From positions 321,511 to 385,510 of the forward strand of contig JBAZSC010000001.1 of assembly GCA_041662665.1 (NCBI GenBank): a DNA stretch of 64,000 bases, read 5' to 3'. This stretch comes from Patescibacteria group bacterium. Lineage in GTDB: Bacteria > Patescibacteriota > JABMPQ01 > JAQVVF01. The translations under genes and the position numbers were made by a program. The notes beneath the pieces were generated by a model. It ran no database searches. It saw only the letters and a program-made list of their open reading frames with translations, and was not told where the DNA came from. Within the stretch, counting starts at the first letter, position 1. Each line of letters begins with the position of its first letter. Below, one piece after another: positions 23,401 to 58,150 of this stretch.

Positions 23401-23413
23401 AATTTTTTATAAA

Positions 23414-26316: not shown

Positions 26317-26321
26317 TTCGC

Positions 26322-26360
26322 GAATTGCACGAATGCCTTAAGACCACTAATCTCACGAAT
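26322..26360. promoter_or_regulatory. copy 1 (reverse orientation) of a ~36-bp motif centred on GCCTTAAG
   Basis: GAATTGCACGAATGCCTTAAGACCACTAATCTCACGAAT. Other copies at 30002-30038, 39646-39682 and 40788-40826. Confidence 0.6.
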
Positions 26361-26366
26361 ATATAA

Positions 26367-26390
26367 AACCACGCTTTAAGCGTGGTTTTT
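26367..26390 (+). terminator. rho-independent terminator after the DUF3048 gene
   Basis: ACCACGC-tttaa-GCGTGGT hairpin followed by TTTTT. Confidence 0.6.
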
Positions 26391-26411
26391 AGTTTGATTT
26401 TTGATACAAAA

Positions 26412-26440
26412 TTGACAAAAATAATGTTAAGTGTTATACT
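26412..26440 (+). promoter_or_regulatory. sigma70-like promoter TTGACA-17-TATACT
   Basis: Exact TTGACA at 26412, a 17-bp spacer, then TATACT. A GGAAGGAGGA RBS follows, 8 nt before the ATG at 26484. Confidence 0.6.
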
Positions 26441-26483
26441 CAAAAATACTGTTATCGTGGTCCAGGGAAGGAGGAAAGACAGA

Positions 26484-27383
26484 ATGGAAAAGGACGCACA
26501 ACCTCGTATCGCTCTTTTTATCGACTTTGATAATATGCTTGATTTTCTTACTCCTGATTCAATTTCCAGATTACTAAATAAGCTTCGTGATCTTGGTAGA
26601 ATAGAGCATGCAGGAATTTATACTGATGTTTGTTTTGTTGCGAACTCCGGTAAAACAAAAGACTATGGAATCATTCTTCGTGCCTATGAACAGGGTTGTA
26701 AAATCTTTCATTGCCCAAAGCTAAATGGTCGAGAAAAGCCGAAAGATACAGTGGATGAGAATATTATCACTGATATCCATACGTTGCTTGAAACTCGACC
26801 TGACATTAGTCACTTTGTTCTCGCTTCCCATGATTCAAATTTTCTTAGGTCTGCAAATGCAGTTAGTTTTCGAGGTAAAAATCTTGTTGTTGTCATGAAT
26901 GATCCAGCAGGTAATAGGAGACTAGAACAAATTGCGGATGATGTCATTTTTCTAAGTGAGCTAGAAACGCCAGAAAATAAGGAACCAGCCCCTCCGAATA
27001 ATCCCTTGGCTGAATTCTTAAACCAAAGATTTGCAGATCCAGAAAGCCTATACAAAGCTGTGAGAGAACTTGGCCTCAACAAAAACGATAGGTTAAGACT
27101 TGCCCTAGATGCTGTAATTAATATTAATAGTATGCCTCAAGGAGAATATCCTTACAAATACCTTGTAGATTACCTAGCTCATCAGGGTCAATTCACTTTT
27201 GCTCAGCGAACAGATGAAGGCGCAATTAGAGGTGCGATAAATGATTTGATCGGTTGTAACATTTTACTCAGACAAACAAAACCTGATTTCAAATTCTATG
27301 TTCTAGATCCAACTCATATGTTTGTAATCGTCGCACTCAATTCTGTACATCTTGAAGTCCTCAAAGCTCTTTTGCAAGATTAG
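26484..27383 (+). CDS. NYN (LabA-like/PIN-like) domain protein
   Basis: RIALFIDFDNM...FVLASHDSNF matches NYN nuclease-fold blocks. Start placed at the ATG after the strong SD. The gene is ~40% GC, higher than its neighbours. Confidence 0.65.
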   Translation: MEKDAQPRIALFIDFDNMLDFLTPDSISRLLNKLRDLGRIEHAGIYTDVCFVANSGKTKDYGIILRAYEQGCKIFHCPKLNGREKPKDTVDENIITDIHTLLETRPDISHFVLASHDSNFLRSANAVSFRGKNLVVVMNDPAGNRRLEQIADDVIFLSELETPENKEPAPPNNPLAEFLNQRFADPESLYKAVRELGLNKNDRLRLALDAVININSMPQGEYPYKYLVDYLAHQGQFTFAQRTDEGAIRGAINDLIGCNILLRQTKPDFKFYVLDPTHMFVIVALNSVHLEVLKALLQD

Positions 27384-27401
27384 ATCTACTCTAATCTTTT
27401 T

Positions 27402-28274
27402 TTATACCCAAATTATCATCACTCTCTCACATCCTCCTAAATCATTTTTGATTTCATATTTTGCTTCTGGCATTTTTTCTTTAACCAGATTTATCATTTT
27501 GTCTTTAAAAACTGGATCAATCTCAAAAAATATAATGCCATTTTTATTCAGATATCTTGGCGCTTGATCTAGTAATTCAGAATACAAAGTTGTTTCTTCT
27601 TTTACAATCAAAGCGGTTTTTGGTTCAAATTTTCTGACATCTTCTTCAGTTAAATCTAATTGTTCAACTGTAATATATGGTAAATTAGCGCAAATTATGT
27701 CAACTTTATTTTCAAGTAATGGTTCTAATAAATTTCCTTGCAATAACTCAACATTTGCTTTATTTTTTTCAACATTTATTTTTGCAACTTCTAGAGCATC
27801 ATAAGATAAATCAATTGCAAAAATTTTAGCATTTTCCAAATTTTTAGCCAGGCTTACAGCAATACATCCAGATCCAGTTCCGACGTCAGCAATTTTTAAT
27901 TCAAGTCTCGAAGACGCTCGGCTTTCTCCGGAAAAAGCCGAGCGTCTTAGTTTTTGTTCACGAATTACTTCTTCAACGAGTATTTCAGTTTCAGGTCTTG
28001 GAATTAAAACTCGTTTATCAACGTAAAAATTTAGTCCGAAAAATTCTTTATTATTAATAATATAGGCAATTGGCTCATGTTTCTTTCTTCTTTCTAAAAG
28101 CTGATTAAATTGTTCAATTTGTTTTTCGTTTAATTCAATTTCAGAATTCGCAAATAAATATTCTTTATTTTTTTTCAAAACAAAAGATAACAAAATTTCG
28201 CAATCCAAATCTGGAGAAGAAGAAATGCCTTTTAATTCTTTTATCGATTTATTTAATAAATTTTTTATAGACAT
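27402..28274 (-). CDS. prmC: peptide chain release factor N5-glutamine methyltransferase
   Basis: VGTGSGCIAVSLA SAM motif and NLPY(I) substrate motif; located near prfA. Confidence 0.8.
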   Translation of the reverse strand: MSIKNLLNKSIKELKGISSSPDLDCEILLSFVLKKNKEYLFANSEIELNEKQIEQFNQLLERRKKHEPIAYIINNKEFFGLNFYVDKRVLIPRPETEILVEEVIREQKLRRSAFSGESRASSRLELKIADVGTGSGCIAVSLAKNLENAKIFAIDLSYDALEVAKINVEKNKANVELLQGNLLEPLLENKVDIICANLPYITVEQLDLTEEDVRKFEPKTALIVKEETTLYSELLDQAPRYLNKNGIIFFEIDPVFKDKMINLVKEKMPEAKYEIKNDLGGCERVMIIWV

Positions 28275-28310
28275 TTTATTATTATGTTATTTTTAATTTT
28301 ATTATTCGCA

Positions 28311-29531
28311 TTATCCGATCCAATACCAGTTCGCGAGCATTACAGTAAACAAACTTAACATCATTGAAAATAGCATGATTATAAAATAATTTAACCATTC
28401 TCTTTTTATTGTAAATTTGGCAAGCAGAATAAAGACTGGAAATAAAACTAATGTAAATCTGGTCATAGAAATTAACGATCCAGTCAAGAAGGGAATTAAC
28501 AATGCCAAAAAACAATATAATCCATAAGACTTTCTTAATCTAAAAAATACAACAATAGATAAAATTAAAAAAGTTATAAAAAAGAAAAATTCAAAATCAT
28601 TTCTTAAAGAAAAAGCAAAATTTTGCGAAGGTTGAAAAATATCGTGGACATGATTTTTCAGATCAATCCATATGCCCCAAAAATCAAATCCAATCTTTCT
28701 GTCCCAAGCAGTTTGCGCCTGCATAAATAAAAAAGCATTTTTAAATTTGATCCATAAAAACAGCATATAACTTGCAAGACCAGCAGGCACCAGCAAAGTC
28801 CATAAAATATCTAATTTAATTTCTTTAAAACTAAATTTTCTTTGTTCAATATATTCTAAAATTAAAACCAGAAACAAGATAATGCCAATTGGACGACATG
28901 TGGCTACAAAAAAACCAAAGCTTGAAGCAATCGCAAATCTTCTAGTTCTCGCAAAATACAAACAAGCAACAGCTAAAAATATAAATAATGATTCAGTATA
29001 AATTGATGCCAGAAAAATCGCAGTTGGAAAAATCAAAAAATAAAAAACAGATTTTAGCGCAGAATTATTATCTTGCAATTCAATCTTAGCGAGCTTATAC
29101 AAAAAATAACAAACGCCAAAAGTAGCTAGCGTTGAAATGATTATTCCAGAAATTACTTGAGATTGAAAAACATAACTAAATATTTTAATCAACAACGGAT
29201 AAAGAGGGAAGAAAGCAGTATTGTACAAATTTTTTGCTTGATCAAAAAAATAACCAGATTTAGCAATTTCCAAATAAAAACCAGAATCCCATTTTACAAA
29301 ATACTGCAAAAATTCTGGTAGTTTATCAATAGACCAAGGACTTAAATGATCATAAGCATTATCTGTTGATAAAAAAAGTCTATATTTACCAAGAAAAGCA
29401 ATAAATTGTACAACAACACGCCAACCAATAAATAACAGAATGATGTTCCAGATTTCTTTTTTTGTTAGTTTTTGTTTCATATATTTTAAAAAAATGTTTT
29501 GACTTAATCGGTTTAGTAAAAAACTTGACAT
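28311..29531 (-). CDS. polytopic membrane protein, glycosyltransferase-like (PIG-V/mannosyltransferase-like)
   Basis: ~10 TM helices and a WDSGFYLEIAKSGY motif near the N-terminus. Confidence 0.5.
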   Translation of the reverse strand: MSSFLLNRLSQNIFLKYMKQKLTKKEIWNIILLFIGWRVVVQFIAFLGKYRLFLSTDNAYDHLSPWSIDKLPEFLQYFVKWDSGFYLEIAKSGYFFDQAKNLYNTAFFPLYPLLIKIFSYVFQSQVISGIIISTLATFGVCYFLYKLAKIELQDNNSALKSVFYFLIFPTAIFLASIYTESLFIFLAVACLYFARTRRFAIASSFGFFVATCRPIGIILFLVLILEYIEQRKFSFKEIKLDILWTLLVPAGLASYMLFLWIKFKNAFLFMQAQTAWDRKIGFDFWGIWIDLKNHVHDIFQPSQNFAFSLRNDFEFFFFITFLILSIVVFFRLRKSYGLYCFLALLIPFLTGSLISMTRFTLVLFPVFILLAKFTIKREWLNYFIIMLFSMMLSLFTVMLANWYWIG

Positions 29532-29553
29532 TTACATAGCTGTATGCTATAAT
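29525..29553 (+). promoter_or_regulatory. consensus sigma70-like promoter TTGACA-17-TATAAT
   Basis: Exact -35 and -10 hexamers with 17-bp spacing; GAGGAGGAAAG RBS before the ATG at 29594. Confidence 0.65.
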
Positions 29554-29593
29554 TAAAAAAGTTCAATCCAGCTGCAGCAGAGGAGGAAAGAAG

Positions 29594-29968
29594 ATGAGAA
29601 GAACACTAATAGCAGTGATTTTCTTCAATCTCATTGGATTTGGTTTTGGTTGTACTCTCAAACCACAGCAATGCCCGTCACAAGGTCTTAAGATTGATGA
29701 AGGACAAGAAAAAAAAAGCTTGCTCATTGTTGAAGAAGCAAAAACTAGCGATTGTTGTGATCCCATTACCCATGGATTGATGAGTACGATTCACGGACGA
29801 GAAACCTATTTCTTTGATAGTTGTCATGGAGACAAGCCATTATATCCTCTTTGCAAGTTTTCTGCAAAGCGCGAATGTTGCGACCGTGCAACAGGACGAT
29901 GGGTTGGTTCTGACGGTTATCTTTCGACGCTTGTAACATGTAGTGGAACAGTTTTTTGTACTTTGTAA
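29594..29968 (+). CDS. small secreted cysteine-rich protein (signal peptide, 12 Cys)
   Basis: MRRTLIAVIFFNLIGFGFGC signal/lipobox-like N-terminus; CC and CxxxxC pairs; strong RBS and promoter. Confidence 0.6.
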   Translation: MRRTLIAVIFFNLIGFGFGCTLKPQQCPSQGLKIDEGQEKKSLLIVEEAKTSDCCDPITHGLMSTIHGRETYFFDSCHGDKPLYPLCKFSAKRECCDRATGRWVGSDGYLSTLVTCSGTVFCTL

Positions 29969-30001
29969 GGGCCAATGTGGCTCTTTTTTTCTATAAAAAT
30001 T

Positions 30002-30038
30002 GGTGCAATTCGAGGCCTTAAGGCATTAGTGAGATTAG
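30002..30038. promoter_or_regulatory. copy 2 of the GGCCTTAAGGCATT motif
   Basis: GGTGCAATTCGAGGCCTTAAGGCATTAGTGAGATTAG. It shares the AATTGCAC and TAATCTCAC arm words with copy 1, each reverse-complemented in place. Confidence 0.6.
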
Positions 30039-31099
30039 TTTATCCCCATTTTGAGACGCTGATCTTCTTCTTTCAATTTATCAATTATTGGATCTAGGTC
30101 ACCGCCCAAAACATAGGGTATACCGTTAGTCGTAAATTTGATTCTATGATCAGTAACTCTATCTTGTGGAAAATTATAAGTTCTAATTTTTTCTGATCGA
30201 TCACCAGTTCCGATTTGCATTTTTCTTTCAGCTCCAGCTTTTTTTGTTCTCTCTTCTTCCTGTTGTGCTAGTACTCTTGATCTCAAAACTTTCATCGCTT
30301 TTGCTTTATTTTTTTGTTGAGATCTTTCATCTTGGCAGGAAGCAACAATGCCAGTAGGTAAGTGTGTAATTCTAATTGCTGAATAAGTTGTATTAACACT
30401 TTGTCCGCCAGCGCCTTGAGAACAAAAAGTATCAATTCTTAAATCTTTCGGTTCTATTTTAAATTCAACTTCTTCTACTTCTGGCAAAACAACAATTGTT
30501 ACAGTTGATGTTTGAATTCTACCTTGTTTTTCTGTTACTGGCACTCTTTGAACGCGATGAACGCCACTTTCATATTTTAAATCTCGATAAACATTATCGC
30601 CTTTGACCGCAAAAATAATTTCTTTAAAACCTCCAATACCTGTTCGATTAGAATTCATTATCTCAATTTTCCAACCTTTTTTTTCAGCAAATCTGGAATA
30701 CATTCTAAATAATTCTGCTGCAAATAAGGCAGCTTCCTCTCCACCAGCTCCAGCTCGAATTTCCATAATCGCATTTTTTGAATCATTTGGATCTTTTGGC
30801 AATAGCTCAACTTCTAAATCTTTCTTCAATTTTTCAAATTCTATTTTTAAATTAGTTAAATCTTCATTTGCCATTTCAATCAATTCTTTATCATTTTCAG
30901 ACTTAATTAATTCTTCATTATCTTTAATTTGTTTCGTTATTTCCTCATATTTATTTATCAAATCAACAGTATCTCTTAATTCAGCAGCTCTTTTAGATAA
31001 TTTTGTCAATTTTAAACTGTCTGAAACTATTTCAGGAGAGCTTAATTCTTGATTTATTTTATTATATTCTTCTTTAATCTTTTTTAATTTTTCTTCCAT
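30035..31099 (-). CDS. prfA: peptide chain release factor 1
   Basis: GGQ motif (SQGAGGQSVNTTYSAIRITHLPTG) and the RF1 domain layout. Confidence 0.9.
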   Translation of the reverse strand: MEEKLKKIKEEYNKINQELSSPEIVSDSLKLTKLSKRAAELRDTVDLINKYEEITKQIKDNEELIKSENDKELIEMANEDLTNLKIEFEKLKKDLEVELLPKDPNDSKNAIMEIRAGAGGEEAALFAAELFRMYSRFAEKKGWKIEIMNSNRTGIGGFKEIIFAVKGDNVYRDLKYESGVHRVQRVPVTEKQGRIQTSTVTIVVLPEVEEVEFKIEPKDLRIDTFCSQGAGGQSVNTTYSAIRITHLPTGIVASCQDERSQQKNKAKAMKVLRSRVLAQQEEERTKKAGAERKMQIGTGDRSEKIRTYNFPQDRVTDHRIKFTTNGIPYVLGGDLDPIIDKLKEEDQRLKMGIN

Positions 31100-31223
31100 A
31101 TAATTTAATTATTTTATTTATCTGTGTCTCTGTGTGCATCTGTAAAGTATCTGTGTAAGATTTGTGACACATTAATTATAACAAAAAACAGAGTATTAAT
31201 AAAAACACTCTGCTTTAAAATCG

Positions 31224-31490
31224 CTATTTATTTGCTGCTTTTTCTTTTCTAATTCTTGGCTTTTTTTCTTTCTTGTCTTGTGTAAATTTCAAGAATTTTT
31301 CTTGTCTTGCCTTGAATTTGTCAAGCATTCCAGCTGTATCAACAAATTTGGCTTTGCCAGTAAATGTTGGATGGCAAGCTGAGCAAATTTCAACATGCAT
31401 CTCCGGAATTGTAGATGCTGTTTTGATTGTATTCCCGCAAGCACATTTGATTGTTGCAGGACCAAATTTAGGATGGATTTTTTCTTTCAT
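31224..31490 (-). CDS. rpmE: 50S ribosomal protein L31
   Basis: MKEKIHPKF...CxCG...CSACHP zinc ribbon typical of L31. Confidence 0.85.
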   Translation of the reverse strand: MKEKIHPKFGPATIKCACGNTIKTASTIPEMHVEICSACHPTFTGKAKFVDTAGMLDKFKARQEKFLKFTQDKKEKKPRIRKEKAANK

Positions 31491-31600
31491 GAGCTTAAAA
31501 ATATAAAAACCTAAAAATATAAAAATTTAGATTTATAAAACAATTATACACAAAACACAGAAAAATGCAAGAGTAAATAAAAAAACCGCTTCAAAGCGAT

Positions 31601-31819
31601 TTAAAATCCGAAAGATCTTGATTTCTTTTTATCAAGGTACAATCGTACTTGTTCAGGGGTAACAAGAGAAACTTTCACAGCCATATCTGCGACACATGCA
31701 CCACAAAATATTTTATTGCCCAAGTTTTTTAATTGTACGCCACATTCAAAATGAAAACCGTTTCCACAAATTGAACATGTCATTGCCGAGTTACTGCCAC
31801 AAACTTTGCACAATGCCAT
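31601..31819 (-). CDS. small zinc-ribbon protein (paralogous to the N-terminal extension of Prs)
   Basis: MALCKVCGSNSAMTCSICGNGFHFECGVQL...FCGACVADM. Start placed at the ATG preceded by AAGGAGGAAAGGG. Confidence 0.5.
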   Translation of the reverse strand: MALCKVCGSNSAMTCSICGNGFHFECGVQLKNLGNKIFCGACVADMAVKVSLVTPEQVRLYLDKKKSRSFGF

Positions 31820-31917
31820 CCCTTTCCTCCTTTTCCTCTGCCAAAAGAACATTTATATTATACAAAAAATGCAAAGAATCGCAAGAGTAAATAAAAAAAC
31901 TGCCAAAAAGCAGTTAT

Positions 31918-33039
31918 CTAGTCAAAAAGTGCAGAAACAGAACCATACTCATAAATAGCCTTAATCGCATCAGCAATTAATTTATCAACAGACACAACTC
32001 TTATTTTTTCATGTAACTTTCTTTCTGGAATATGAACAGTATCAGTAACAGCTAGAAAATCTAGACAAGATAGTTGAATTCGTTCTGCTGCTCCTTCTGT
32101 CAATTCACCATGGATCCCACCTCCAACAACTTTTATTGCTCCATTTTTTAAGCAAGCTTGACCCATTTTAATCATTGTTCCAGCTGATTTCACAATATCA
32201 TCAATAATCAAAACAACTTTACCAGATACATTTCCAATAATCGTTATCTGATCAACTCTATCATCTGTAGTATCTCGACCTTCCTTGTGAGCAACGGCAA
32301 AGCCAACTCCGAATTTCCTAGCATAAGCGCCAACTACTTTGGCATAGCCTGCATCAGTCAAAAAAACAGTTCGATTAGAATCGATCAAATCAGCAAAAGC
32401 TTCTTTCAAAAGCAATGGTGTTGCCCAAAGATGATCAACCGGCTTGTTCGTAAAGCCTTGAATCGCACCAGCATGCAGATCCACAAAAACAAATCTATCG
32501 GCACCAGCTGTTTCAAACAAATCAATCATTAATCTTGCTGAAATAGCAATTCTTGGTTGAGTTTTTCTCTCTTGCCGTTGATAAGCAAAATCAGGAATCA
32601 CTACGCAAACTTCTTGAGCTGAAGCTTGTTTTGCGGCCCTTATCATTATTAGCAATTCTTCTCTAACCTTTGCACCAAGTTCATCTTCGCTAGCAACGGT
32701 TGGCTGAATAATAAAGACTCTTCTTCCTCTTAAGTTCTCAAGAAACTGAGGTCTCATTTCACTGCCTTCAAAATCAGTAAATCTCATTTTTCCAAGTTCA
32801 ACGCCCAGCTTATTACAAACTCTTTGTGCCAAAAGCTCATTAGATCTGCCAGAAAAGATTGCTAATTGATGAGGAGTAACAGATCTATAGAGAGTTTTGC
32901 CACAATCGCGACAAATAAATTTTTTTCCAATTTTTGTCAGGCATTGCGAACAAAAACATTGATCGCAGAACATACAAATTCCTTCTGCCGAATTTTCTTG
33001 ATGCAAGATGCAATGAACTCCAAAACTTTTTTCTGTCAT
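31918..33039 (-). CDS. prs: ribose-phosphate pyrophosphokinase with N-terminal Cys-rich zinc-ribbon extension
   Basis: PRPP synthetase blocks (VVLIIDDIVKSAGT, DLHAGAIQGF). An extra ~60 N-terminal residues carry CxxC...CxxC...CxxC. Start placed at MTEKSF after a GGAGGAG RBS. Confidence 0.8.
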   Translation of the reverse strand: MTEKSFGVHCILHQENSAEGICMFCDQCFCSQCLTKIGKKFICRDCGKTLYRSVTPHQLAIFSGRSNELLAQRVCNKLGVELGKMRFTDFEGSEMRPQFLENLRGRRVFIIQPTVASEDELGAKVREELLIMIRAAKQASAQEVCVVIPDFAYQRQERKTQPRIAISARLMIDLFETAGADRFVFVDLHAGAIQGFTNKPVDHLWATPLLLKEAFADLIDSNRTVFLTDAGYAKVVGAYARKFGVGFAVAHKEGRDTTDDRVDQITIIGNVSGKVVLIIDDIVKSAGTMIKMGQACLKNGAIKVVGGGIHGELTEGAAERIQLSCLDFLAVTDTVHIPERKLHEKIRVVSVDKLIADAIKAIYEYGSVSALFD

Positions 33040-33196
33040 TCTCTCCTCCTTGGCAAGGATTTCTCCTTGCATTAAACGGAATGAACTTCATTTCATAATC
33101 TACCTATTTTGTAACAATCAAAAAAGAAACAACCTAGAATTTATTGTCCGCCGTAGTCCCGCAGGACGAAGGCGGATTGAATTTTAAGGAACAAAA

Positions 33197-34843
33197 TTAT
33201 TTTATTTTTTTAATCATGTAGCTATCCTGAAATTTATATCCTTGTTTTCGATAATAATCTCTAACACCGACACCAGAAATAACTGCAATTTTGTTTAATC
33301 TAAATTCTTTTTTAACAATTTTTTCTGCTTCTTTCATCAAACTTTTACCTAAGCCCATGTGTTGTGAAGCCTTCAAATTTTTCTTATCAATTTCAACCAT
33401 TTGTCCTAAACTTTTCAATTCTCTAATTATAGCACAATTATTTAATACATTAATATAATGTTTTTCATGAGTAAAATATTGTGATGGAATTCTTAATCTA
33501 AGATAAGCTAATATTTTATTATTTTTTTCATCCTCATAGCTTAGAAAAATTTCTTTTCCATTTGAGGCATTATAATCCATCCTGGTTAATTTTATATCTC
33601 CCATTTCCCATTTCCCATTTCTCACTTCACGACATCGAATGCATTTGCACAACAAATTTTGTTCAATCATTTTTGCATGAACAACTTGTCTAATATTTGA
33701 CATTTTATTTCCAGCCACAATATCTGGAGCCGGAATATCTCGACCAAGTCTCATTATTCTAACATATTTTGGAATTTTTTGTTTAATTTTAATTAGCAAT
33801 TCAACAATTTCTTTATCGCTGTATGGTTTATATTTTCCTGCTTTCCAAACTTTATATAATTTAGAATTCTTCGTCAAAACACAAGGATAAATTTTTAACA
33901 TATCAGGCTGAAAAGAAGAATCAGAAAATAATTCTTCAAACATTTGCAAATCTTTATTATTATTACTTTTTGGTAAATTCGGCATCATGTGATAATTGAT
34001 TTTAAAACCTGCATCTTTCAGCAATTGTGTTGCCTGTATAGTTTTATCAATCAAATGTCCGCGATTATTGAACTTTAAAACATTATCATAAATACTTTGC
34101 ACGCCTAGTTCAATTCTGGTAGCTCCAAGTTTTCGCATTCTGATTACTTCTTTCTCATCAATCAAATCAGGTCTTGTTTCAAGAGTCATTCCAATAATTC
34201 TATGTTTCGCTTTTTCATTTCGCTTTTGTTCGTCAGTTAAAGTCGTTTGTTTATTTGTTTTATTGTTTTTTTGTTTATTAAAATGATTAGCCGTTTTAAA
34301 ACATTTTAACACAAAATTATTTTGATAATTTTTTGGTAGGGCAGTCCACGATCCTCCCATAATAATCAGCTCAATTTTATCAGTTTTATGTCCGCAAATA
34401 TTTAATGCTTCTAATCTTGTTTCAATCTGTTTTTTTGGCGAGTAATTACAAAGAATTGCTCTCATTACAGCTGGCTCATCATTCAAGTAGCTTTTTGGCA
34501 TTTTTGGTTGACTCGGACAATACAAACATTTTCCAGGACATTTGTATGGCTTTGTAAAAATTGCAATTGAAGCAATGCCAGATAATGTTCTGGTCTTTTG
34601 TTTTTTTAATAATTCCTCAAAATTTTTGTCTTGCTTAATCTTTTTCTCTTTGATTAAATTTCTATAAACTGATAAAATATTAATATTAGTTAGTAAATTG
34701 CATTTATATTTTTTCGAAATCTTTCTTTTTTCCAATTCAAATTTGGATCTTAAAAAAGATTTTTGCTTCAAAGTTTTAATTATAAGTTCTTCAACTGGTT
34801 TCATAAGACTAATTATATTATAATAATAAACCATTTTTGTCAA
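33197..34843 (-). CDS. Elp3-like radical SAM / GNAT acetyltransferase
   Basis: Radical SAM CxxxxCxxC (CPGKCLYCPS) and a C-terminal GNAT motif (QHMGLGKSLM). The true start may be an internal Met. Confidence 0.75.
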   Translation of the reverse strand: MTKMVYYYNIISLMKPVEELIIKTLKQKSFLRSKFELEKRKISKKYKCNLLTNINILSVYRNLIKEKKIKQDKNFEELLKKQKTRTLSGIASIAIFTKPYKCPGKCLYCPSQPKMPKSYLNDEPAVMRAILCNYSPKKQIETRLEALNICGHKTDKIELIIMGGSWTALPKNYQNNFVLKCFKTANHFNKQKNNKTNKQTTLTDEQKRNEKAKHRIIGMTLETRPDLIDEKEVIRMRKLGATRIELGVQSIYDNVLKFNNRGHLIDKTIQATQLLKDAGFKINYHMMPNLPKSNNNKDLQMFEELFSDSSFQPDMLKIYPCVLTKNSKLYKVWKAGKYKPYSDKEIVELLIKIKQKIPKYVRIMRLGRDIPAPDIVAGNKMSNIRQVVHAKMIEQNLLCKCIRCREVRNGKWEMGDIKLTRMDYNASNGKEIFLSYEDEKNNKILAYLRLRIPSQYFTHEKHYINVLNNCAIIRELKSLGQMVEIDKKNLKASQHMGLGKSLMKEAEKIVKKEFRLNKIAVISGVGVRDYYRKQGYKFQDSYMIKKIK

Positions 34844-34856
34844 AGGTAATTAATTT

Positions 34857-34940
34857 AACTTATCTAATTAGTCTAACTAATCTAACTTATCTAATTAGTC
34901 TAACTAATCTAACTTATCTAATTAGTCTAACTAATCTAAC
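34857..34940. repeat. tandem repeat, 27-bp unit x3 (AACTTATCTAATTAGTCTAACTAATCT)
   Basis: Three perfect head-to-tail copies read directly in the sequence. Confidence 0.85.
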
Positions 34941-34954
34941 TCGTATTTTAAACT

Positions 34955-35671
34955 ATGGACAAAGAATACGCTCAAAAATTAATAGATAAAACCAAGCAGG
35001 ACTACAAATCCTTGGCTAAAGAGTTTTCCGCAACTCGTGCTTTTTCATGGCAAGAATTAGAAGATCTCGTAAAATTTATAAAGCCAAATCAAAATGTTCT
35101 TGATGCGGGCTGTGGCAATGGACGTCTTTATCAATTACTGAAAAATAAAAATATTAAATATTTAGGTATTGATAATAGCGAGGCATTAATTAATGAAGCT
35201 AAAACAAAATATCAATTTGGAAATTTCAGACAAATGGATTTGTTAGATCAACATTTTGAAGCAGAAACTTTTGACATAATTTTTTGCATTGCTGCTTTGC
35301 AACATATTCCATCTAAAGAATTCCGCTTGCAAGTTTTGCGAGATTTTTATCACATCTTAAAACCAAATAGTTATTTATTAATGACTAATTGGAATCTTTG
35401 GCAAGCAAAATATTTTTGGCAAACTATTAAATATTCATTTTTAAGTATTGCTGGCAAGCACAAAGAATTAGATTTGAAAGATGTTTATATGCCATGGAAA
35501 GCAAGATTTGGCGTTGTTGATCGTTATTATCATGCTTTCACCAAAAAAGAATTGGCAAGTTTATTGCAAGAAGTTGGTTTTAAAGTAGAAGATCAGTATT
35601 ATGTTAAAAAAGGTGAAAAATCAAATTGGCGAAATGGATATAATCTAATTACGATTGCTAAAAAAATATAG
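34955..35671 (+). CDS. class I SAM-dependent methyltransferase
   Basis: VLDAGCGNGRL motif I. Confidence 0.75.
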   Translation: MDKEYAQKLIDKTKQDYKSLAKEFSATRAFSWQELEDLVKFIKPNQNVLDAGCGNGRLYQLLKNKNIKYLGIDNSEALINEAKTKYQFGNFRQMDLLDQHFEAETFDIIFCIAALQHIPSKEFRLQVLRDFYHILKPNSYLLMTNWNLWQAKYFWQTIKYSFLSIAGKHKELDLKDVYMPWKARFGVVDRYYHAFTKKELASLLQEVGFKVEDQYYVKKGEKSNWRNGYNLITIAKKI

Positions 35672-35673
35672 TA

Positions 35674-35702
35674 TTGACATTATTAGTATTTTTGTATAAA
35701 AT
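35674..35702 (+). promoter_or_regulatory. sigma70-like promoter TTGACA-17-TAAAAT
   Basis: Exact -35 hexamer with 17-bp spacing, followed by an AAGGAGGAGGAAGAG RBS. Confidence 0.55.
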
Positions 35703-35736
35703 AATTAGTCTTAATTCAGTCAAGGAGGAGGAAGAG

Positions 35737-36198
35737 ATGAGAAGAGCAGTTCTGATTGTTCTCTCTGCAATTATATTCAGTTCCAATGCCTTTGCACAAA
35801 AACAACTCACTGTTCCAAAAGAAATTGTTGTAGAAATGGAAAAAACTGGTTGTCAAGTTATCCCATCTTACGTTAGTACTCAGAGCAATTACATCAACTT
35901 TGACATTGATAACCAAAATATCCCAAAATGTGTTGTCATTCCGATCGCAGCCAATTTCTCAACGCTTACTTTCCTTGTCCAAGCGCCATACAATTATGAT
36001 GTTACGGCTGAATTTTCTGATGGCAATCTGCAATTTTACAGGCATCAGAAAGAACGAAGTAAGCTTCAAATCAATCTCTGGAATTGCTTCAATCTTGGTC
36101 GTAATAGTTGGCTATTCGTCAAAGTTTCTATCTATAATCAAGATCCCAAAGCTCAACCAAACCAGAAAATTTATTTCGGAGCTCGTGCCAGGCAATAG
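35737..36198 (+). CDS. small secreted hypothetical protein
   Basis: MRRAVLIVLSAIIFSSNAFAQ signal peptide. Start placed at the ATG after the strong RBS, not at the upstream track start 35674. Confidence 0.6.
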   Translation: MRRAVLIVLSAIIFSSNAFAQKQLTVPKEIVVEMEKTGCQVIPSYVSTQSNYINFDIDNQNIPKCVVIPIAANFSTLTFLVQAPYNYDVTAEFSDGNLQFYRHQKERSKLQINLWNCFNLGRNSWLFVKVSIYNQDPKAQPNQKIYFGARARQ

Positions 36199-36206
36199 CT
36201 CATTTC

Positions 36207-36230
36207 AGATCGGTTTACCGATCTTTTTTA
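36207..36230 (+). terminator. rho-independent terminator
   Basis: AGATCGG-ttta-CCGATCT hairpin plus TTTTTT immediately after the stop. Confidence 0.7.
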
Positions 36231-36328
36231 TTTCTCTTGCCAAAATTTTTTTCTCATGTTATATTGCTAACAGTAAACCATTAACACTTCACAGTTAACT
36301 GTTAAATGTTAAAAGTTAATTGTTAATA

Positions 36329-36456
36329 CACCACACGTTTTCCGACCACCAGCCTTCCTCTCATTAACAAATCTTGTTAAATTGAGTGGCATGGTGGAAT
36401 GACGAAAACGGCGGACTAAGGACAAATCTTCTTAGTTCGCCATGGGCGAATTTTTT
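36329..36456 (+). ncRNA. GC-enriched structured intergenic element upstream of rpsB (candidate leader/sRNA)
   Basis: About 50% GC over ~125 nt in a 30% GC background. Contains inverted repeats GGCGGACTAAG/CTTAGTTCGCC and a T-run. Confidence 0.3.
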
Positions 36457-36548
36457 AATTTTGTTATTAATTTTAGTTATTTATAATTTAGTTATTTTGT
36501 TATTTTTGTTATAATACAAAGTACTAGATTATATAATCAAATCTAATT

Positions 36549-37289
36549 ATGAAGACCCCAACGATTCAAGAGCTACTAAAGGCAGGTGCACATTTTGGCC
36601 ACAAAGCAGCAAAATGGAATCCAAAAATGAAACAATATGTCTTTGCAAAAAAAGAAGGCATTTATATTATCAACCTTTCCAAAACAAAAGAAATGCTTGA
36701 AAAAGCATTAGAATATGTTGCCGAAATTGCCAAAAAAGGCGGAAAAATTGTTTTTATCTGCACAAAAAGACAAGGCAAAGATATTGTTAAAAAAGCTGCA
36801 ATTTCTTGCAATATGCCTTATGTTACAACAAGATGGCTTGGCGGAACTTTGACAAATTTCAAAACAATTCACAACTTAATTCAAAAATTAAGAACATTGG
36901 AAAGAAAAAAAGAAACTGGTGAAATGGAAAAGAATTATACAAAATATGAAAAGCAATTAATGCTTGAAGATATTGAAAAATTAAATAACAAAATCGGTGG
37001 TTTGAAGAATTTAGACAAATTGCCAGAAGCTTTATTTTTAATCGATGTTATGGATAACAAATCAGCAGTTAAAGAAGCAAGAGTTGTCAATCTTCCAACA
37101 GTTGCATTAGTTGATGCAAATGCCAATCCAGAAATCATCAATTATCCAGTTCCTTGCAATGATGATGCTATCAAAGTTATTGATTTAATGGCAAATACAT
37201 TTGCAGAATGCATTAAAGAAAATTATAAAGAACAAAAGCCAACAGTAGGCAATGTAACAAAAGTTACAGGCCCACAAAATTTGAGATAA
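36549..37289 (+). CDS. rpsB: 30S ribosomal protein S2
   Basis: MKTPTIQELLKAGAHFGHKAAKWNPKM... canonical S2. Confidence 0.95.
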   Translation: MKTPTIQELLKAGAHFGHKAAKWNPKMKQYVFAKKEGIYIINLSKTKEMLEKALEYVAEIAKKGGKIVFICTKRQGKDIVKKAAISCNMPYVTTRWLGGTLTNFKTIHNLIQKLRTLERKKETGEMEKNYTKYEKQLMLEDIEKLNNKIGGLKNLDKLPEALFLIDVMDNKSAVKEARVVNLPTVALVDANANPEIINYPVPCNDDAIKVIDLMANTFAECIKENYKEQKPTVGNVTKVTGPQNLR

Positions 37290-37302
37290 ATAATAAAATA
37301 AA

Positions 37303-38715
37303 ATGGAAAATCAAAATCAAACATCCTATGATGCTTGGTTGAAAGAGTGTGATTTTCTAGCAAAAGTCAGAAAAGAAAACCCAAAAAAGATAGAACGACA
37401 AAACCCAATTATCGAGGATCAAAAATTACTTCAAGATTACGGAATTGAAATAATTTCTGATCTACCTTTGGGTTTTTTGCGTTTTTCGCCAGCTGATTTC
37501 ATTGTTGAAGAAATTACTCAAGATGGCAGAATTACAACTATTGATCCAGAAAATGATCCAAGCTTAGCAGATCAAGAAGGCGAGACAGTTTATGCTGATG
37601 TAGTTAAAATTGGCATTCCAACATTAGAAGCAATTGATCGTATTGCCAAAAAATTGAATGTAGGCTTAGGACAAATTGGCTATTCTGGCATGAAAGATGC
37701 CATTGCTATTACTTCTCAAAAATTTAGTTTTAGAAAAATATCCAGAGATAAAATAAAAGAATTAAAACTTCCAAATATTTATTTAAAAAATATAATTGTT
37801 AGCAAAGGCGCTTTGCAACCAGGAAATTTGATTGGTAATAGATTTAATATTTTTATCCGAACAAAAGGTTTGTACGATCCAAATTTGTTATTAGAAAAAT
37901 TAAACCATATTAAAGAAGTTGGCTTTTATAATTTTTTTGGCAGTCAACGATTTGGCGGAGCTAGGGGAATTGGCCACAAGCTTGGTATAATTTTACTTCG
38001 TGGTGATTATGAGTTAGCAGTTAAAGCATTTTTAATTGCTCAAGGCAAGAATGAAATTCCATTAATCCAAGAATTAAGAAACAAAGCCAAAGCAATTTAT
38101 GGCAATTGGAATGATATGATCAAAATTTATGAACAAATGCCATATACTTTTTCTGGCGAAATAAGAGTTTTAAAAGCTTTGACGCATGAACCAAGTGATT
38201 ATATTAATGCCTTATTAGCAATCAAAGAACAAGTCAAACTTTGGGCTTATGCTTACGGTAGCTATTTATTTAATAAAAAAATCTCACAATTAGTTCGCAA
38301 CAAAATTAATCTGCCAGCTAAATTGCCATTATTTTTGAGCAATGAAAGATCAGACAAAGATTTGTATGAAGACTTTTTAGAAAGCGATAAAACAAAAAAT
38401 TTCCGAGAATCAGCTCGTCCATTTCCATTTATCCAGTTGCGTCATTATGAAGTTCCAACATTATTATCTCCAAAAATTAATTCTTTTACTTGTACAGAAG
38501 ATGGAGTTGCCATTAATTTTGAATTACACAAAGGTGCCTATGCCACAACATTTTTATCTCATATCTTTACTTTGACAATGGGCTTGCCATTGCCAAGTTG
38601 GGTCTCACAAAAAGAAATTGATACCTTAAAAATATTAGAGCTAGGCACAATAGAAAATATCAAAAAAGTTTTTGAAGAATACTGGTCAAATGTTTTAACA
38701 AATTCTGGTAAATAA
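37303..38715 (+). CDS. truD: TruD/Pus7-family tRNA pseudouridine synthase
   Basis: GxKD motif (QIGYSGMKDAIAITSQKF) and the FxNYFGxQRFG block. Confidence 0.65.
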   Translation: MENQNQTSYDAWLKECDFLAKVRKENPKKIERQNPIIEDQKLLQDYGIEIISDLPLGFLRFSPADFIVEEITQDGRITTIDPENDPSLADQEGETVYADVVKIGIPTLEAIDRIAKKLNVGLGQIGYSGMKDAIAITSQKFSFRKISRDKIKELKLPNIYLKNIIVSKGALQPGNLIGNRFNIFIRTKGLYDPNLLLEKLNHIKEVGFYNFFGSQRFGGARGIGHKLGIILLRGDYELAVKAFLIAQGKNEIPLIQELRNKAKAIYGNWNDMIKIYEQMPYTFSGEIRVLKALTHEPSDYINALLAIKEQVKLWAYAYGSYLFNKKISQLVRNKINLPAKLPLFLSNERSDKDLYEDFLESDKTKNFRESARPFPFIQLRHYEVPTLLSPKINSFTCTEDGVAINFELHKGAYATTFLSHIFTLTMGLPLPSWVSQKEIDTLKILELGTIENIKKVFEEYWSNVLTNSGK

Positions 38716-38828
38716 TTCTGCGTTTTCTGCGTTCGATTCTGCGTATTTCTGCGGAATCGTTTTTAACGCAGACTAACGCAGAATCTAACGCAGAACGTGC
38801 AGAAAATAATCTACACGTTTTTTTTGTG

Positions 38829-38859
38829 CAAAAAAAAGACCGACTCGGACGAGTCAGTC
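38829..38859 (-). terminator. rho-independent terminator for the GC-rich gene
   Basis: GACTGACTC-gtcc-GAGTCGGTC hairpin on the minus strand followed by T8. Confidence 0.6.
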
Positions 38860-38905
38860 TAGGTAGGGTGCGAAAGGAACGGGTGTTGTGAGTGTGTGGG
38901 TAGGT

Positions 38906-39493
38906 CTATCGGGTGGGGGGGCTCAGCGTGTAGGTGTAGCGACCGGGGGCGAAGCTGATGTGCAGCTCTTCCTGGGTCACCATGCCGTCGCGGGGGACTG
39001 GCACGTTCACGGTGTCGAGCCTGTACAGCTCTTCACCCTTCTCGTTGACGTTGGCCCAGACGTTGCAGTAGGGTGTGGTCTGGTTGAAGAGGTTGACGAC
39101 ACGATCGGGCAGCTTGAGATCTTTTCCTGTCTGAGTGAGCACCAGCTGCAGGAACCTCTTCCTGCCACGCTTATCCTCACGCCAGAACCAGAAGGCATCC
39201 GTCACCTTGTAGCCAGCCATGCCGAGCTCGCTCAGGAGTGCGCTCATGTCGACCATCTGCCGATTGGCAGCGATGTTCGTGCCGGTGTCATCCATGCCGT
39301 CTCTCTTGACACCGAACTCGATTCCGAGATCCTTTGCCTCCTTGCGGTGCTTCGCAGCCACCGCCTTTGCATCGTACTCCTTCTGAGGGAGCAGAGCCTC
39401 GATCCAGCCGCCGATTCCGGCGACCTTCACGAGGATGATGAGGGGCATGAGCCCCAGACCTTCGAACTGATCAACCAGGACCGTGCGGCTCAT
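38906..39493 (-). CDS. hypothetical protein encoded by a GC-rich (~60%) gene with GC3-saturated codons
   Basis: Start at MSRTVL, preceded by AGGAGG, a 5-prime UTR and an exact TTGACA-17-TATGAT promoter. The antisense + ORF 38888-39583 is a GC artefact. No recognisable domain. Confidence 0.55.
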   Translation of the reverse strand: MSRTVLVDQFEGLGLMPLIILVKVAGIGGWIEALLPQKEYDAKAVAAKHRKEAKDLGIEFGVKRDGMDDTGTNIAANRQMVDMSALLSELGMAGYKVTDAFWFWREDKRGRKRFLQLVLTQTGKDLKLPDRVVNLFNQTTPYCNVWANVNEKGEELYRLDTVNVPVPRDGMVTQEELHISFAPGRYTYTLSPPTR

Positions 39494-39542
39494 CGGAAAC
39501 CTCCTGTCAGTGGTGGCACTCACCCCGATTCCAGGGCTTTTC

Positions 39543-39571
39543 ATCATATCACAGCACCCTATTTTTGTCAA
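39543..39571 (-). promoter_or_regulatory. consensus sigma70-like promoter TTGACA-17-TATGAT (minus strand)
   Basis: Seen as TGTCAA ... ATCATA on the + strand with 17-bp spacing. Confidence 0.6.
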
Positions 39572-39645
39572 TGGCATTTTTGAAGTGGGAAGTGGGATCT
39601 TGGGATATGAGAAATGGGAACCTTAAATAAGCCAAAAAAAGATAT

Positions 39646-39682
39646 TTGTGCGATTAGTGGCCTTAAGGCATTCGTGCGATTT
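39646..39682. promoter_or_regulatory. copy 3 of motif GTGCGATT-agt-GGCCTTAAGGCATT-c-GTGCGATT
   Basis: Direct 8-mer arms flank the palindromic CCTTAAGG core; located upstream of the promoter of the GC-rich gene. Confidence 0.6.
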
Positions 39683-39689
39683 GTAAGCA

Positions 39690-39712
39690 TAAAAAAAGAG
39701 GTAAAAACCTCT
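39690..39712 (-). terminator. rho-independent terminator for the MYG1 gene
   Basis: AGAGG-tttttac-CCTCT hairpin plus T7 on the minus strand. Confidence 0.6.
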
Positions 39713-39730
39713 ATCTAAAAGAACGCTTAA

Positions 39731-40708
39731 TTATGCTTTGAGTGCAACCTTCGCTAGTGCAATCGCTCCTTCTCTTGATTTCGCTACTACAATATGCCCA
39801 TCTTTATGGCAGTTATCAGCATCAGCAACTCCAGTCAATTTGACCAAAGTTGAGCCGCGCTGTCCATGCCATGCTTTTGGCAAGTTTTTACGATAGCGTT
39901 TGCCAGTCCCATATCCAGCATTCACAACATGTACCATCCAGCCATTGTTAACGCGATGAACAACAAATTTGATCAGCGGTAATTCTTTAACAACTGATGA
40001 CCAAGGCATCGGATCATTCAATACAACAATTCTTGGATCATCAGATTCAGGTACCGCTTTCAACACCAGCTCTTCAGCTCTGATGACGCCTGCAGCTCTT
40101 GCAATTGTCCTTTTTAGATAGACCTTGGCAAATTCCAAAGCTTCAAAAAAAGCAACATCTGGATCTCGATCATTTTCATCCCAAGCTGGATTATAATTAT
40201 CAATCACATTTGAAATAGTGTGTGCAGAGATATCTTCCACTTTTCCTTGAAAAATCTTGTAGCCATTGTCCTGTGCATCAATTGGAATCACCAGCCACTT
40301 TTCTACAAGCTTAGCTACTTTTTCATTTCCATCACAAATTGCTACTCCAAACTTTTTCCAGACCAATCCAAAAGAAGCATAGGGCAGATGTGCGGTCACT
40401 TTCTTGCCAAACAATTTCCACATCAGCAAGTTGATAATATGCTTGAAAATCCAAGCAAACCGCAAGACTTTGAAAAAGCCTTCACGTATTCCAGCTCCGC
40501 CAAACATGTGATGATCAAAGTCGCCAGTATTTGGATCATTTTCGCCGCCGACATCAACTCGAAAATCAGCCTTTTCGTAAACTTCCTGATCGCGAGTCCG
40601 AAAAATTTGAATGATAAAGAGCAATGCCAATGCTGCACACGCAAACACATCATCAGCATGAAACCTTCCATTATGCGTTGCAACAACCTTATGTTCCTTC
40701 TCAATCAT
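39731..40708 (-). CDS. MYG1/UPF0160-family metal-dependent hydrolase
   Basis: N-terminal ATHNGRFHADDVFACAALAL and C-terminal GWMVHVVNAGYGTGKRYR...HKDGHIVVAKSREGAIALA match MYG1 blocks. RBS GAGGAGGAAGAGG. Confidence 0.65.
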   Translation of the reverse strand: MIEKEHKVVATHNGRFHADDVFACAALALLFIIQIFRTRDQEVYEKADFRVDVGGENDPNTGDFDHHMFGGAGIREGFFKVLRFAWIFKHIINLLMWKLFGKKVTAHLPYASFGLVWKKFGVAICDGNEKVAKLVEKWLVIPIDAQDNGYKIFQGKVEDISAHTISNVIDNYNPAWDENDRDPDVAFFEALEFAKVYLKRTIARAAGVIRAEELVLKAVPESDDPRIVVLNDPMPWSSVVKELPLIKFVVHRVNNGWMVHVVNAGYGTGKRYRKNLPKAWHGQRGSTLVKLTGVADADNCHKDGHIVVAKSREGAIALAKVALKA

Positions 40709-40742
40709 TTCCTCTTCCTCCTCTTCGTTTTCGCAGCTAATT

Positions 40743-40771
40743 AAAATATCAGAAAATAACTAAAATGTCAA
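40743..40771 (-). promoter_or_regulatory. sigma70-like promoter TTGACA-17-TATTTT (minus strand)
   Basis: TGTCAA ... AAAATA on the + strand with a 17-bp spacer, ~35 nt upstream of the MYG1 ATG. Confidence 0.5.
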
Positions 40772-40787
40772 CTGAATGTAAAATATA

Positions 40788-40826
40788 TTTGTGTTATTTG
40801 TGGCCTTAAGGCATTTGTGCATATTC
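40788..40826. promoter_or_regulatory. copy 4 of the GGCCTTAAGGCATT motif
   Basis: TTTGTGTTATTTGTGGCCTTAAGGCATTTGTGCATATT, ~20 bp upstream of the -35 of the MYG1 promoter. Confidence 0.6.
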
Positions 40827-40847
40827 GAGAGTATAAAAAATCAGCCG

Positions 40848-43174: not shown

Positions 43175-43304
43175 ATTTAAAAATTAATAGTGTCATTCTG
43201 AGGCCTAAGCCGAAGAATCCCGTGATTGTTATCTGATTTACGGGATCCTTCACTGCGGTTCAGGATGACAGTATATTTTTCGTTATTACTTTTAAAACAA
43301 AATT

Positions 43305-58148: not shown

Positions 58149-58150
58149 TT

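Follow-up and report, generated by a model that had tools for sequence, protein, structure and literature searches.

A gene-end repeat of a narrow Patescibacteria clade that may be a truncated REP-like element

Background

Systems made up of repetitive extragenic palindromes (REPs) and REP-associated tyrosine transposases (RAYTs) have been described mainly in Proteobacteria. REPs are located downstream of open reading frames (ORFs), where the neighbouring genes are unidirectional or convergent, and occur both singly and as dimers; they carry GTGG heads, and G-T pairs are known in them (PMC3733652, PMC2817692). The published stems are 5-13 bp long (PMC2817692, PMC3733652). Our literature searches found nothing on REP/RAYT systems in Patescibacteria. 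This report concerns a motif of 39-48 bp which occurs four times in a 64,000-nt stretch of a Patescibacteria group genome (GenBank assembly GCA_041662665.1, contig JBAZSC010000001.1, positions 321,511 to 385,510 of the forward strand; GC content 32%), referred to here as the window. A first-pass annotation of the same DNA had taken the motif for either a palindromic transcription-factor site or a recombination site. We tentatively propose, giving the proposal a little short of an even chance, that it is a truncated REP-like interspersed extragenic repeat belonging to a narrow clade of Patescibacteria. The motif is REP-like; it is not a proven member of a REP family.

Bacterial interspersed mosaic elements (BIMEs) and BOX elements are mosaic or modular intergenic repeats assembled from short sub-motifs. 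The present motif resembles them in its modular build, in which a conserved central module is accompanied by a variable number of short flanking units, and in its intergenic position at the 3' ends of genes. It differs from both in that its sub-motifs are unrelated to theirs in sequence, and it is much shorter than the BOX elements.

Results and Discussion

Sequence of the motif and copies in the window

The consensus of the four copies in the window (Table 1) is nAATCkCAC-n-AATGCCTTAAGGCCAC-n-AATCkCAC-nAAT, the strand that reads AATGCC...CCAC being taken as forward. A degenerate 34-mer consisting of the core and its arms, searched with up to three mismatches, matched the window exactly four times, compared with 0.00 times in 100 dinucleotide shuffles, and the matches fall within 3 nt of the places at which the first-pass annotation had put them. 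A position weight matrix (PWM) trained on seven copies, applied to the window with a threshold of 12 bits, detected no others. Copies 2-4 carry the 14-mer core, GGCCTTAAGGCATT, without a mismatch, copy 1 has a single one (GGTC), and all three occurrences of CCTTAAGG in the window are within the motif. The unit is composed of 9-nt modules (nAAT-NN-CAC), and the central module has a perfect 10-bp palindrome, GCCTTAAGGC, where the others have NN. Read on the GTG strand, this gives ATT-N-GTGG, CC-TTAA-GG and C-ATT within two to four 9-nt units of the form GTG-NN-ATT-N.

Copy 2 has GAGG in place of GTGG before the core, and of the two arms of copy 4, GTGTTATT and GTGCATATT, the second carries one additional base. 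The arm words shared in swapped order by copies 1 and 2 are real. The arm vocabulary is small and recurs across genomes (AATCTCAC five times, AATCGCAC five times, AATTGCAC twice), with the variation clustered at the N and NN positions.

Placement at gene ends

All four copies are intergenic in a window of which approximately 16% is intergenic (probability by chance, 0.16^4 = 7e-4). Each is found just past a stop codon, that of the DUF3048 gene, prfA, MYG1 and the TPR gene, respectively, and has the polarity of the gene it follows. Copy 1 starts 6 nt beyond the DUF3048 stop codon and ahead of the terminator of that gene. Copy 2 sits between convergent gene ends, facing the terminator of a 124-aa ORF; its first TAA is the stop codon of prfA, and its overlap with the last codons of that gene is the sole intrusion of a window copy into coding sequence. 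Copies 3 and 4 follow the MYG1 and TPR-gene terminators. Two copies in the window precede an intrinsic terminator and two follow one, so that there is no fixed relation to a promoter. Copies in the relatives described below also lie past stop codons at all loci examined. Counting the four single copies and three pairs as independent cases, the polarity was the same in seven of seven, which is a small sample.

Distribution among genomes

One genome from each of 185,579 species was scanned with the pattern GGCCTTAAGGCATTNGTG (the core plus GTG). There were 26 matches, of which 23 were chance occurrences without arms and three had the full motif: loci L012 and L016 in GCA_028699085.1 and L013 in GCA_964574655.1. 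Protein searches with MYG1 and prfA independently named these two assemblies as the closest sampled relatives of the window, their prfA products being 91% and 85% identical to that of the window, respectively. Syntenic loci were fetched via MYG1 and prfA from both (L032 and L033 from the former, L034 from the latter), together with more distant loci, ie L030 and L031 (MYG1 66-69%), L038 (prfA 70%), L044 (prfA 68%) and L042 (prfA 64%). Copies detected by the weight matrix were confined to the three closest genomes (prfA at least 85% identical), and no copy reached 8 bits in about 70 kb from the distant relatives (prfA at most 70% or MYG1 at most 69%). With the weight matrix, copies were sought in the 64-kb window and in the loci fetched from the relatives.

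In other assemblies of the same organism (L027-L029 and L045) the MYG1 region is 100% identical and the gene arrangement at prfA is unchanged, and strain-level polymorphism was discarded. A pattern with 21 specified bases had no match in JGI metagenome contigs, where a search with the lineage-specific 196-aa protein encoded next to MYG1 found no relatives either; the lineage is absent from those contigs. A phage or plasmid origin was rejected; a scan of viral contigs gave two chance matches, both lacking arms and in DNA of high GC content, and a blastn search of phage and plasmid records gave nothing.

Turnover at orthologous sites

Six comparisons of orthologous sites were made, and the motif was present in two, represented by its arms only in one and absent from three. 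At the copy 1 site the DUF3048 stop codon and the terminator ATAAAACCACGC are common to the window, L032 and L034. The interval between them is 46 nt in the window, where it holds the motif, compared with 12 unrelated nucleotides in L032, while in L034 the same left arm (TCGCGAATcTGCACGAAT) is followed by a different GC hairpin, CCTGCCTGCCGGTAGGCAGG. At the copy 2 site L032 has an orthologous copy (11049-11087, 35 of 39 positions identical), the first arm of which is read through by prfA before it stops at the TAA of the core. The same site has an unrelated hairpin and no motif in L034, a 15-nt gap and no motif in L044, and a Y1 transposase gene inserted in the prfA terminator in L038. The orthologue of copy 3 in L034 (1841-1879), identified by the shared flanks GCTTAC and TTTTTGGCTTATT, is 77% identical (30/39) and has a disrupted core (GCCTTACGAC); at this site the motif is missing from L032, L030 and L031. 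The non-orthologous pair of copy 4 and L013a is identical at 37 of 39 positions, ie more alike than copy 3 and its orthologue, and identity between non-orthologous copies ends at the borders of the element. Being multi-copy, patchy at fixed loci and alike at unrelated ones, the motif behaves as an interspersed repeat family which turns over at orthologous sites, and not as a conserved regulatory set.

The change from GGCC to GGTC on the GTG strand arose independently in copy 1 (26332-26345) and in the L034 copy (1855-1866). It could reflect deamination of a methylated GGCC, or a G-T pair that is tolerated in a single-stranded hairpin.

The spacers that bear the motif differ in gene content between relatives, the variable gene being MYG1, the TPR gene, the NYN gene, a PDDEXK_3 gene or the 124-aa ORF. 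These spacers are hot spots of gene gain and loss, which is a correlation. MYG1 is absent from this site in L034 and L032 and is present without the motif in L030 and L031; it is vertically inherited, its 65% identity to the L030 protein lying within the 44-87% range of its neighbours. Inverted pairs of the motif with their heads inward were found in L013 (L013a and L013b, 2 nt apart), L016 (L016b and L016a, flanking a terminator) and L032 (L032a and L032b, flanking a PDDEXK_3 gene).

The NYN protein of the window (26382-27383) is 43% identical to its L034 counterpart (13655-14575), compared with 75-89% for the neighbouring genes, and the gene is absent from this site in L032, L038 and L044. 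It is fast-evolving or has been replaced.

Similarity to the REPs of a RAYT in a sister genome

Two genes of L032 scored 122 and 127 bits with NCBIfam model NF047646, that of the REP-associated tyrosine transposase, for which the cut-off is 80. REPs flank both genes; these have a GTGG or GTAG head, a GC-rich stem of 7 bp, a loop of sequence TTTA and the returning side of the stem, and CCAC-G-AAT often follows on the other strand. The REP adjoining one of the genes, GGCCTTTAGGCAT, matches the core of the motif at 12 of 13 positions, and matches to the core with at most two mismatches number three in L032, compared with 0.23 expected. Relative to these REPs, the motif consists of the head (GTGG) and the apical stem-loop GGCC-TTWA-GGCC, with the lower 4 bp of the stem missing. 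A solo REP of the same type is found in L034 (4235-4252), at the TruD/S2 junction where L032 has a RAYT, and the same type surrounds a RAYT of 69% identity in L037 (1600-2360).

Several further properties are those of a REP or of a REP doublet forming a hairpin (REPIN). The motif is a short extragenic repeat at many unrelated loci (four spacers of the window, and further loci of two sister genomes), it lies past ORFs both singly and as inverted doublets, and it is patchy in close relatives. A GT(A/G)G head adjoins the GC-rich palindrome, and six of ten copies have a head of the GTGG type (copies 1, 3 and 4, L012, L013a and L013b, the last with GTTG). The deviant heads are GAGG in copy 2 and L016a, GATG in L032a and GCGG in L034. 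Copies are also found where small selfish genes (PDDEXK_3, Y1 transposase) land.

If the motif is indeed a REP derivative, the family would have arisen from the REPs that flank the RAYT genes of the sister genome. Single-stranded DNA copies would be inserted, or would once have been, by a Y1 (HUH) transposase that acts in trans. They would land just past stop codons and terminators with one polarity relative to the preceding gene, and would afterwards persist, decay or vanish locus by locus.

A number of observations weigh against this proposal. The stem of the palindrome is only 3 bp (GCC-TTAA-GGC), below the published range, and DNA folding of the four copies on both strands gave no structure better than shuffled sequences (z from -1.6 to +1.0). 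The 14-nt core is identical in eight copies over three genomes although it can form no good hairpin, and a sequence-specific binding site on double-stranded DNA would account for this no less well. The flanking 9-nt arms are direct repeats, for which described REPs offer no counterpart, and uniform polarity to the preceding gene is not a described REP property. The density of about one copy per 16 kb is low by comparison with published REP families, which usually exceed 100 copies per genome. The window has no canonical GTGG REP, and no transposase gene flanked by the motif was seen in the sequence examined. The sole Y1 gene in the window scored 45.6 bits, short of the cut-off of 80, and its flanking repeats are unrelated to the motif. 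A search for homologues of the L032 RAYT gave nine proteins, none of them on the 645-kb contig to which the window belongs.

A signal at the ends of genes

The exact core, conserved where there is no hairpin to conserve, could alternatively be accounted for by a polar gene-end signal, an explanation we consider rather unlikely. A dimeric host protein would bind double-stranded GCCTTAAGGC, perhaps with the phased CAC-N-AAT arms, or else a factor would bind the C-rich transcript; such a signal would help to terminate transcription units, to insulate them or to label 3' ends, the genome being a very compact one. The concentration of variation at the N and NN positions of the arms is in keeping with it, as are the shared polarity in all seven cases and the identical arrangement of the three pairs. 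In addition, the four motif-bearing spacers carry short terminators only, as opposed to the long array hairpins present in 17 of the 35 window spacers analysed (see below). The position of the motif relative to the terminator is at odds with such a function: it comes before it in copy 1 and L012, and after it in copies 3 and 4, L016a and L034, while copy 2 and L032a overlap the coding end of prfA. Genes and terminators also stay in place where the motif goes (copy 1 in L032, copy 2 in L034 and L044, copy 3 in L032), and the broken core in L034 means that the motif is not maintained there. The upstream genes (DUF3048, prfA, MYG1, TPR and pheT) are unrelated to each other, and no candidate binding protein was found.

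Array hairpins and selfish ORFs

The spacers of the window have a second kind of structure, of which we know of no description. Spacers of 60-260 nt were folded, and 17 of 35 were more stable than shuffled sequences with z of -3 or below. The folding spacers are made up of a pair of inverted arrays whose locus-specific units are 7-9 nt long (TTAAC, TCTGCGT, AAATNNC, GAATNAT and others); several types of unit recur at several loci. The first arm along the direction of transcription is usually rich in C and poor in G. In the relatives, PDDEXK_3 genes and one 23S_rRNA_IVP gene are located inside such hairpins. The reverse complement of the upstream array overlaps the 3' end of the ORF, with the result that the last 10-15 codons are encoded by the repeat; array-encoded ends read, for example, ...IRDIRGRSHL, ...SIRDSIREIDIRA and ...SSASSALASA, each followed by the stop codon. 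The 9-nt arms of the motif follow the style of these arrays, and at the copy 1 site in L034 arms of this kind are kept around a different hairpin.

The motif might thus be a half-site or arm of the lineage's array hairpins, the copies in the window being solo arms left after loss or replacement of the element, with no need for a link to a RAYT. We regard this as doubtful. In its favour, the L032 orthologue of copy 2 serves as the 5' arm of a hairpin in which a degenerate inverted copy (GCGG-GCGAAGC-CATT-T-GTGAAATT) makes up the 3' arm and encodes the last 13 codons of a PDDEXK_3 gene. PDDEXK_3 genes in L030, L034 and L038, and the gene for an intervening-sequence (IVS) protein in L032, are nested likewise in other array types; L013 and L016 have inverted pairs free of any ORF, and the arrays flanking the L030 PDDEXK_3 gene hold CTC-TAATGCC words which resemble the motif. 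Set against this, no copy in the window has an inverted partner or a PDDEXK_3 remnant nearby, and the other array families have no conserved GC-rich core common to genomes. The explanation overlaps with that of a truncated REP-like repeat and does not exclude it.

A related scheme, to which we attach a similarly low probability, is that GCCTTAAGGC and the CAC-N-AAT units form a conserved recognition site for a protein of an array-based system for marking gene ends. Polar, phased arrays of short units would then serve as landing pads or carriers for small selfish ORFs such as those for PDDEXK_3, the IVS protein and the Y1 transposase, the last codons of which would come from the array.

Recombination at cassette junctions

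The copies had been placed at cassette junctions at the outset, and one of the functions suggested for the motif was that of a recombination site. A site-specific recombinase would act on the CCTTAAGG core to invert, excise or integrate the segments between copies. Gene content does vary at the motif-bearing spacers, and the genes adjoining the copies are variably present among relatives. MYG1 lies between direct copies 4 and 3, and L034 lacks MYG1 and has one copy left. The swapped arm words of copies 1 and 2 are what inversion between sites of the form P-core-P and Q-core-Q is expected to give.

The breakpoints, however, are independent of the motif. The L034 copy retains both the left (GCTTAC) and the right flank of copy 3, which places the junction of the MYG1 deletion, the one indel that could be mapped, outside the core and within the TTTTTTAT runs of both terminators. 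That left flank was also the ground for rejecting a loss of MYG1 through recombination of copy 4 with copy 3. The order and orientation of the genes between copies 1 and 2 are unchanged in L034, which is without copy 2: in both genomes prfA is followed by the PIG-V gene, a small ORF and prmC, then by the NYN and DUF3048 genes on the opposite strand, which shows that no inversion took place. The arms of copy 2 are already present in L032 and the left arm of copy 1 in L034, so the arm pattern predates the splits, and an inversion between copies 1 and 2 was rejected on both counts. The dyad extends over 3-4 bp only per side, the long arms being direct repeats; prfA and pheT are not cassette genes; and no match to a recombinase or integrase Pfam family was obtained among approximately 45 window ORFs scanned. 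The recombination-site explanation is largely refuted, and its remaining probability is very small.

The segment bracketed by copies 1 and 2 was also said to separate prmC from prfA. It contains the NYN gene, prmC, a PIG-V-like gene and the 124-aa ORF; with prmC inside the bracket, the bracketed segment does not separate the two genes. In this clade (L044, L038, L034 and L032) the presence of the PIG-V-like gene between prfA and prmC is the ancestral state.

The motif shares with the attC sites of integrons its position at the 3' end of genes in fixed orientation, with MYG1 situated between two direct copies. Unlike attC, it lacks both R''/R' boxes and an extended imperfect hairpin. Essential housekeeping genes (prfA, pheT) are among those upstream, the breakpoints of variation lie outside the motif, and no integrase was seen among the approximately 45 window ORFs.

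An operator at promoters

The other function first proposed was that of an operator for a palindrome-binding transcription factor acting at the NYN, 196-aa and MYG1 promoters, which we now hold to be the least probable of the explanations. The motif does contain the perfect 10-bp palindrome, copies 1, 3 and 4 are indeed upstream of strong sigma-70-like promoters, and the window has a gene for a TrmB-family helix-turn-helix protein (Table 1). The distances to the -35 boxes, corrected to 51 nt for copy 1 (across a terminator), 72 nt for copy 3 (the box of the 196-aa gene) and 15 nt for copy 4 (that of MYG1), do not define a fixed position. There is no promoter at copy 2, which like the copies of L012, L013 and L016 faces the ends of genes. 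The promoter block of the 196-aa gene is near-invariant in the window, L034 and L032, whereas the motif immediately upstream is 77% identical in L034 and absent from L032; the MYG1 promoters of L030 and L031 are likewise without the motif, and the downstream genes are functionally incoherent. The motif is independent of promoters, and a transcription-factor site is not upheld.

The 196-aa gene is rich in GC and was correctly assigned to the minus strand, on which both a promoter and a terminator were found. The protein is 65% identical to its L034 homologue, and gene callers put the homologues in L030, L031 and L034 on the strand of MYG1 or of the TPR gene. Its promoter region (TTTTTGGCTTATT...TTGACA-N17-TATGAT; TTTTTGGCTTATT...AAATGGCATTGACAAAAATAAGGTGCTGTGATATGAT) is near-invariant in three genomes in which the spacers have otherwise diverged, and by eye a similar -35/-10 block is present upstream of the homologues in L030 and L031. 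This suggests a strong constraint on the promoter or on an upstream site.

Other identities considered

DNA uptake sequences (DUS) and uptake signal sequences (USS) are, like the motif, short conserved words common to related genomes, and are often near terminators. They occur at about one per kb and also within genes, in contrast to one per approximately 16 kb in spacers only for the motif. An uptake sequence was rejected on the ground of density, and the literature searches gave no link between Saccharibacteria and uptake sequences. The motif is not a MITE (a miniature transposable element with inverted repeats), since its arms are direct and not inverted and no duplication is common to the flanks of the copies. 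Rfam 15 has no match at the gathering threshold covering the motif. Scans at E up to 5 gave weak amino-acid-leader matches, far below gathering and centred on the terminator hairpin beside copy 1, of which a weak Trp_leader match (26277-26393) spans that copy. An RNA element was rejected for want of an Rfam match attributable to the motif, of a fold and of a consistent position relative to terminators.

A cluster of the origin or parS kind was dismissed: the cumulative GC-skew minimum is at about 12 kb, but the skew follows gene orientation and neither dnaA nor parB is nearby. So was a CRISPR remnant, the copies being 1-10 kb apart and not in an array. A link to the window's own Y1 element was rejected as its hairpin word, AAACCGAGTTTC, occurs solely at that element.

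Other features of the window and its relatives

The IS200-like Y1 transposase gene of the window (Pfam E = 3e-10) is flanked by 97-nt direct repeats which are 97% identical to each other. A perfect hairpin with a 13-bp stem lies near it, and the TrmB-family gene is directly upstream of the element. In L038 and L039 a homologue occupies the prfA terminator and is accompanied by a 26-bp target duplication. A separate family of hairpin repeats, (T)GTCATYCTGAGC...GAAGGATCCC / GGGATCC...GCTCAGRATGAC, occupies at least three spacers of the window and is also found in a sister genome. The spacer between the divergent radical-SAM and methyltransferase genes is filled by a tandem array of 10.6 copies of the 9-nt unit TAACTAATC, with a higher-order period of 27 nt and a 97% match. 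GC-rich islands (50-66% GC) stand out from the 32% GC genome; they include the 196-aa gene and a 785-aa ORF without a Pfam match. The ORFs in these islands are open on both strands, and gene callers consequently disagree on the strand of the 196-aa gene (L027 vs L029). Three tandem paralogous genes encode products of 913-1003 aa, and DUF4214 was found in both of those that were scanned.

Table 1. Positions of the motif copies and of other features in the window and in related loci (window positions unless a locus is named)
Feature	Position	Strand	Sequence or remark
Motif copy 1	26322-26360	+	GAATTGCAC-G-AATGCCTTAAGACCAC-TAATCTCAC-GAAT; PWM 58.3 bits; core GAC not GGC
Motif copy 2	29999-30037	-	TAATCTCAC-T-AATGCCTTAAGGCCTC-GAATTGCAC-CAAT; PWM 54.6 bits
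Motif copy 3	39644-39682	-	AAATCGCAC-G-AATGCCTTAAGGCCAC-TAATCGCAC-AAAT; PWM 64.3 bits
Motif copy 4	40787-40825	-	AATATGCAC-A-AATGCCTTAAGGCCAC-AAATAACAC-AAAT; PWM 55.6 bits
DUF3048 gene	25114-26316	+	ends just before copy 1
DUF3048 terminator (intrinsic)	26365-26389	+	directly 3' of copy 1; conserved in L032 and L034 whether or not the motif is there
Terminator of convergent 124-aa ORF	29967-29985	+	adjoins copy 2
prfA	30035-31099	-	stop codon within copy 2
GC-rich 196-aa gene	38906-39496	-	downstream of copy 3; promoter 39571-39543, terminator 38860-38837
196-aa promoter region, window	39497-39640	-	
196-aa promoter region, L034	1880-2014		
196-aa promoter region, L032	2500-2585		
MYG1 terminator	39697-39712	-	directly upstream of copy 3 along transcription
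MYG1 gene	39731-40708	-	between copies 4 and 3, direct orientation
TPR-gene terminator	40839-40862	-	directly upstream of copy 4 along transcription
TPR-repeat gene	40848-42353	-	ends before copy 4
RAYT gene regions, L032	4880-5600; 7285-8015		
ORF-bearing array hairpin, L030	587-1118		
ORF-bearing array hairpins, L032	11049-11535; 1300-1850		
ORF-bearing array hairpin, L034	20040-20640		
ORF-bearing array hairpin, L038	2330-2900		
Array-hairpin spacers, examples	13467-13545; 18719-18817; 21810-21927; 23293-23405; 38716-38810; 44004-44112; 56784-56910; 60574-60702		
TrmB-family helix-turn-helix gene	46310-47089		directly upstream of the Y1 element
Y1 transposase gene	47197-47805		IS200-like
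Direct repeats flanking the Y1 gene	47098-47194; 47812-47908		97 nt
Hairpin near the Y1 gene	47934-47963		perfect 13-bp stem
Separate hairpin repeat family	43175-43304; 58149-58286; 58932-59106; L032 ~3360-3450		
Tandem array	34847-34941		9-nt unit
GC-rich islands	38906-39577; 49000-50000; 51230-53587		
Tandem paralogous genes	2652-11605		three genes; scanned: 2652-5393, 8711-11605

Conclusions

A truncated REP-like repeat would be a modest extension of a known class. If the motif is a stem-less REP derivative which is still spreading or being kept, with strict polarity at gene ends, Y1 transposases may handle far smaller substrates than has been thought; alternatively, a very small genome may have turned decayed REPs into signals at the ends of its genes. 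The motif and the array hairpins mark hot spots of gene-content change between close genomes of an uncultured lineage.

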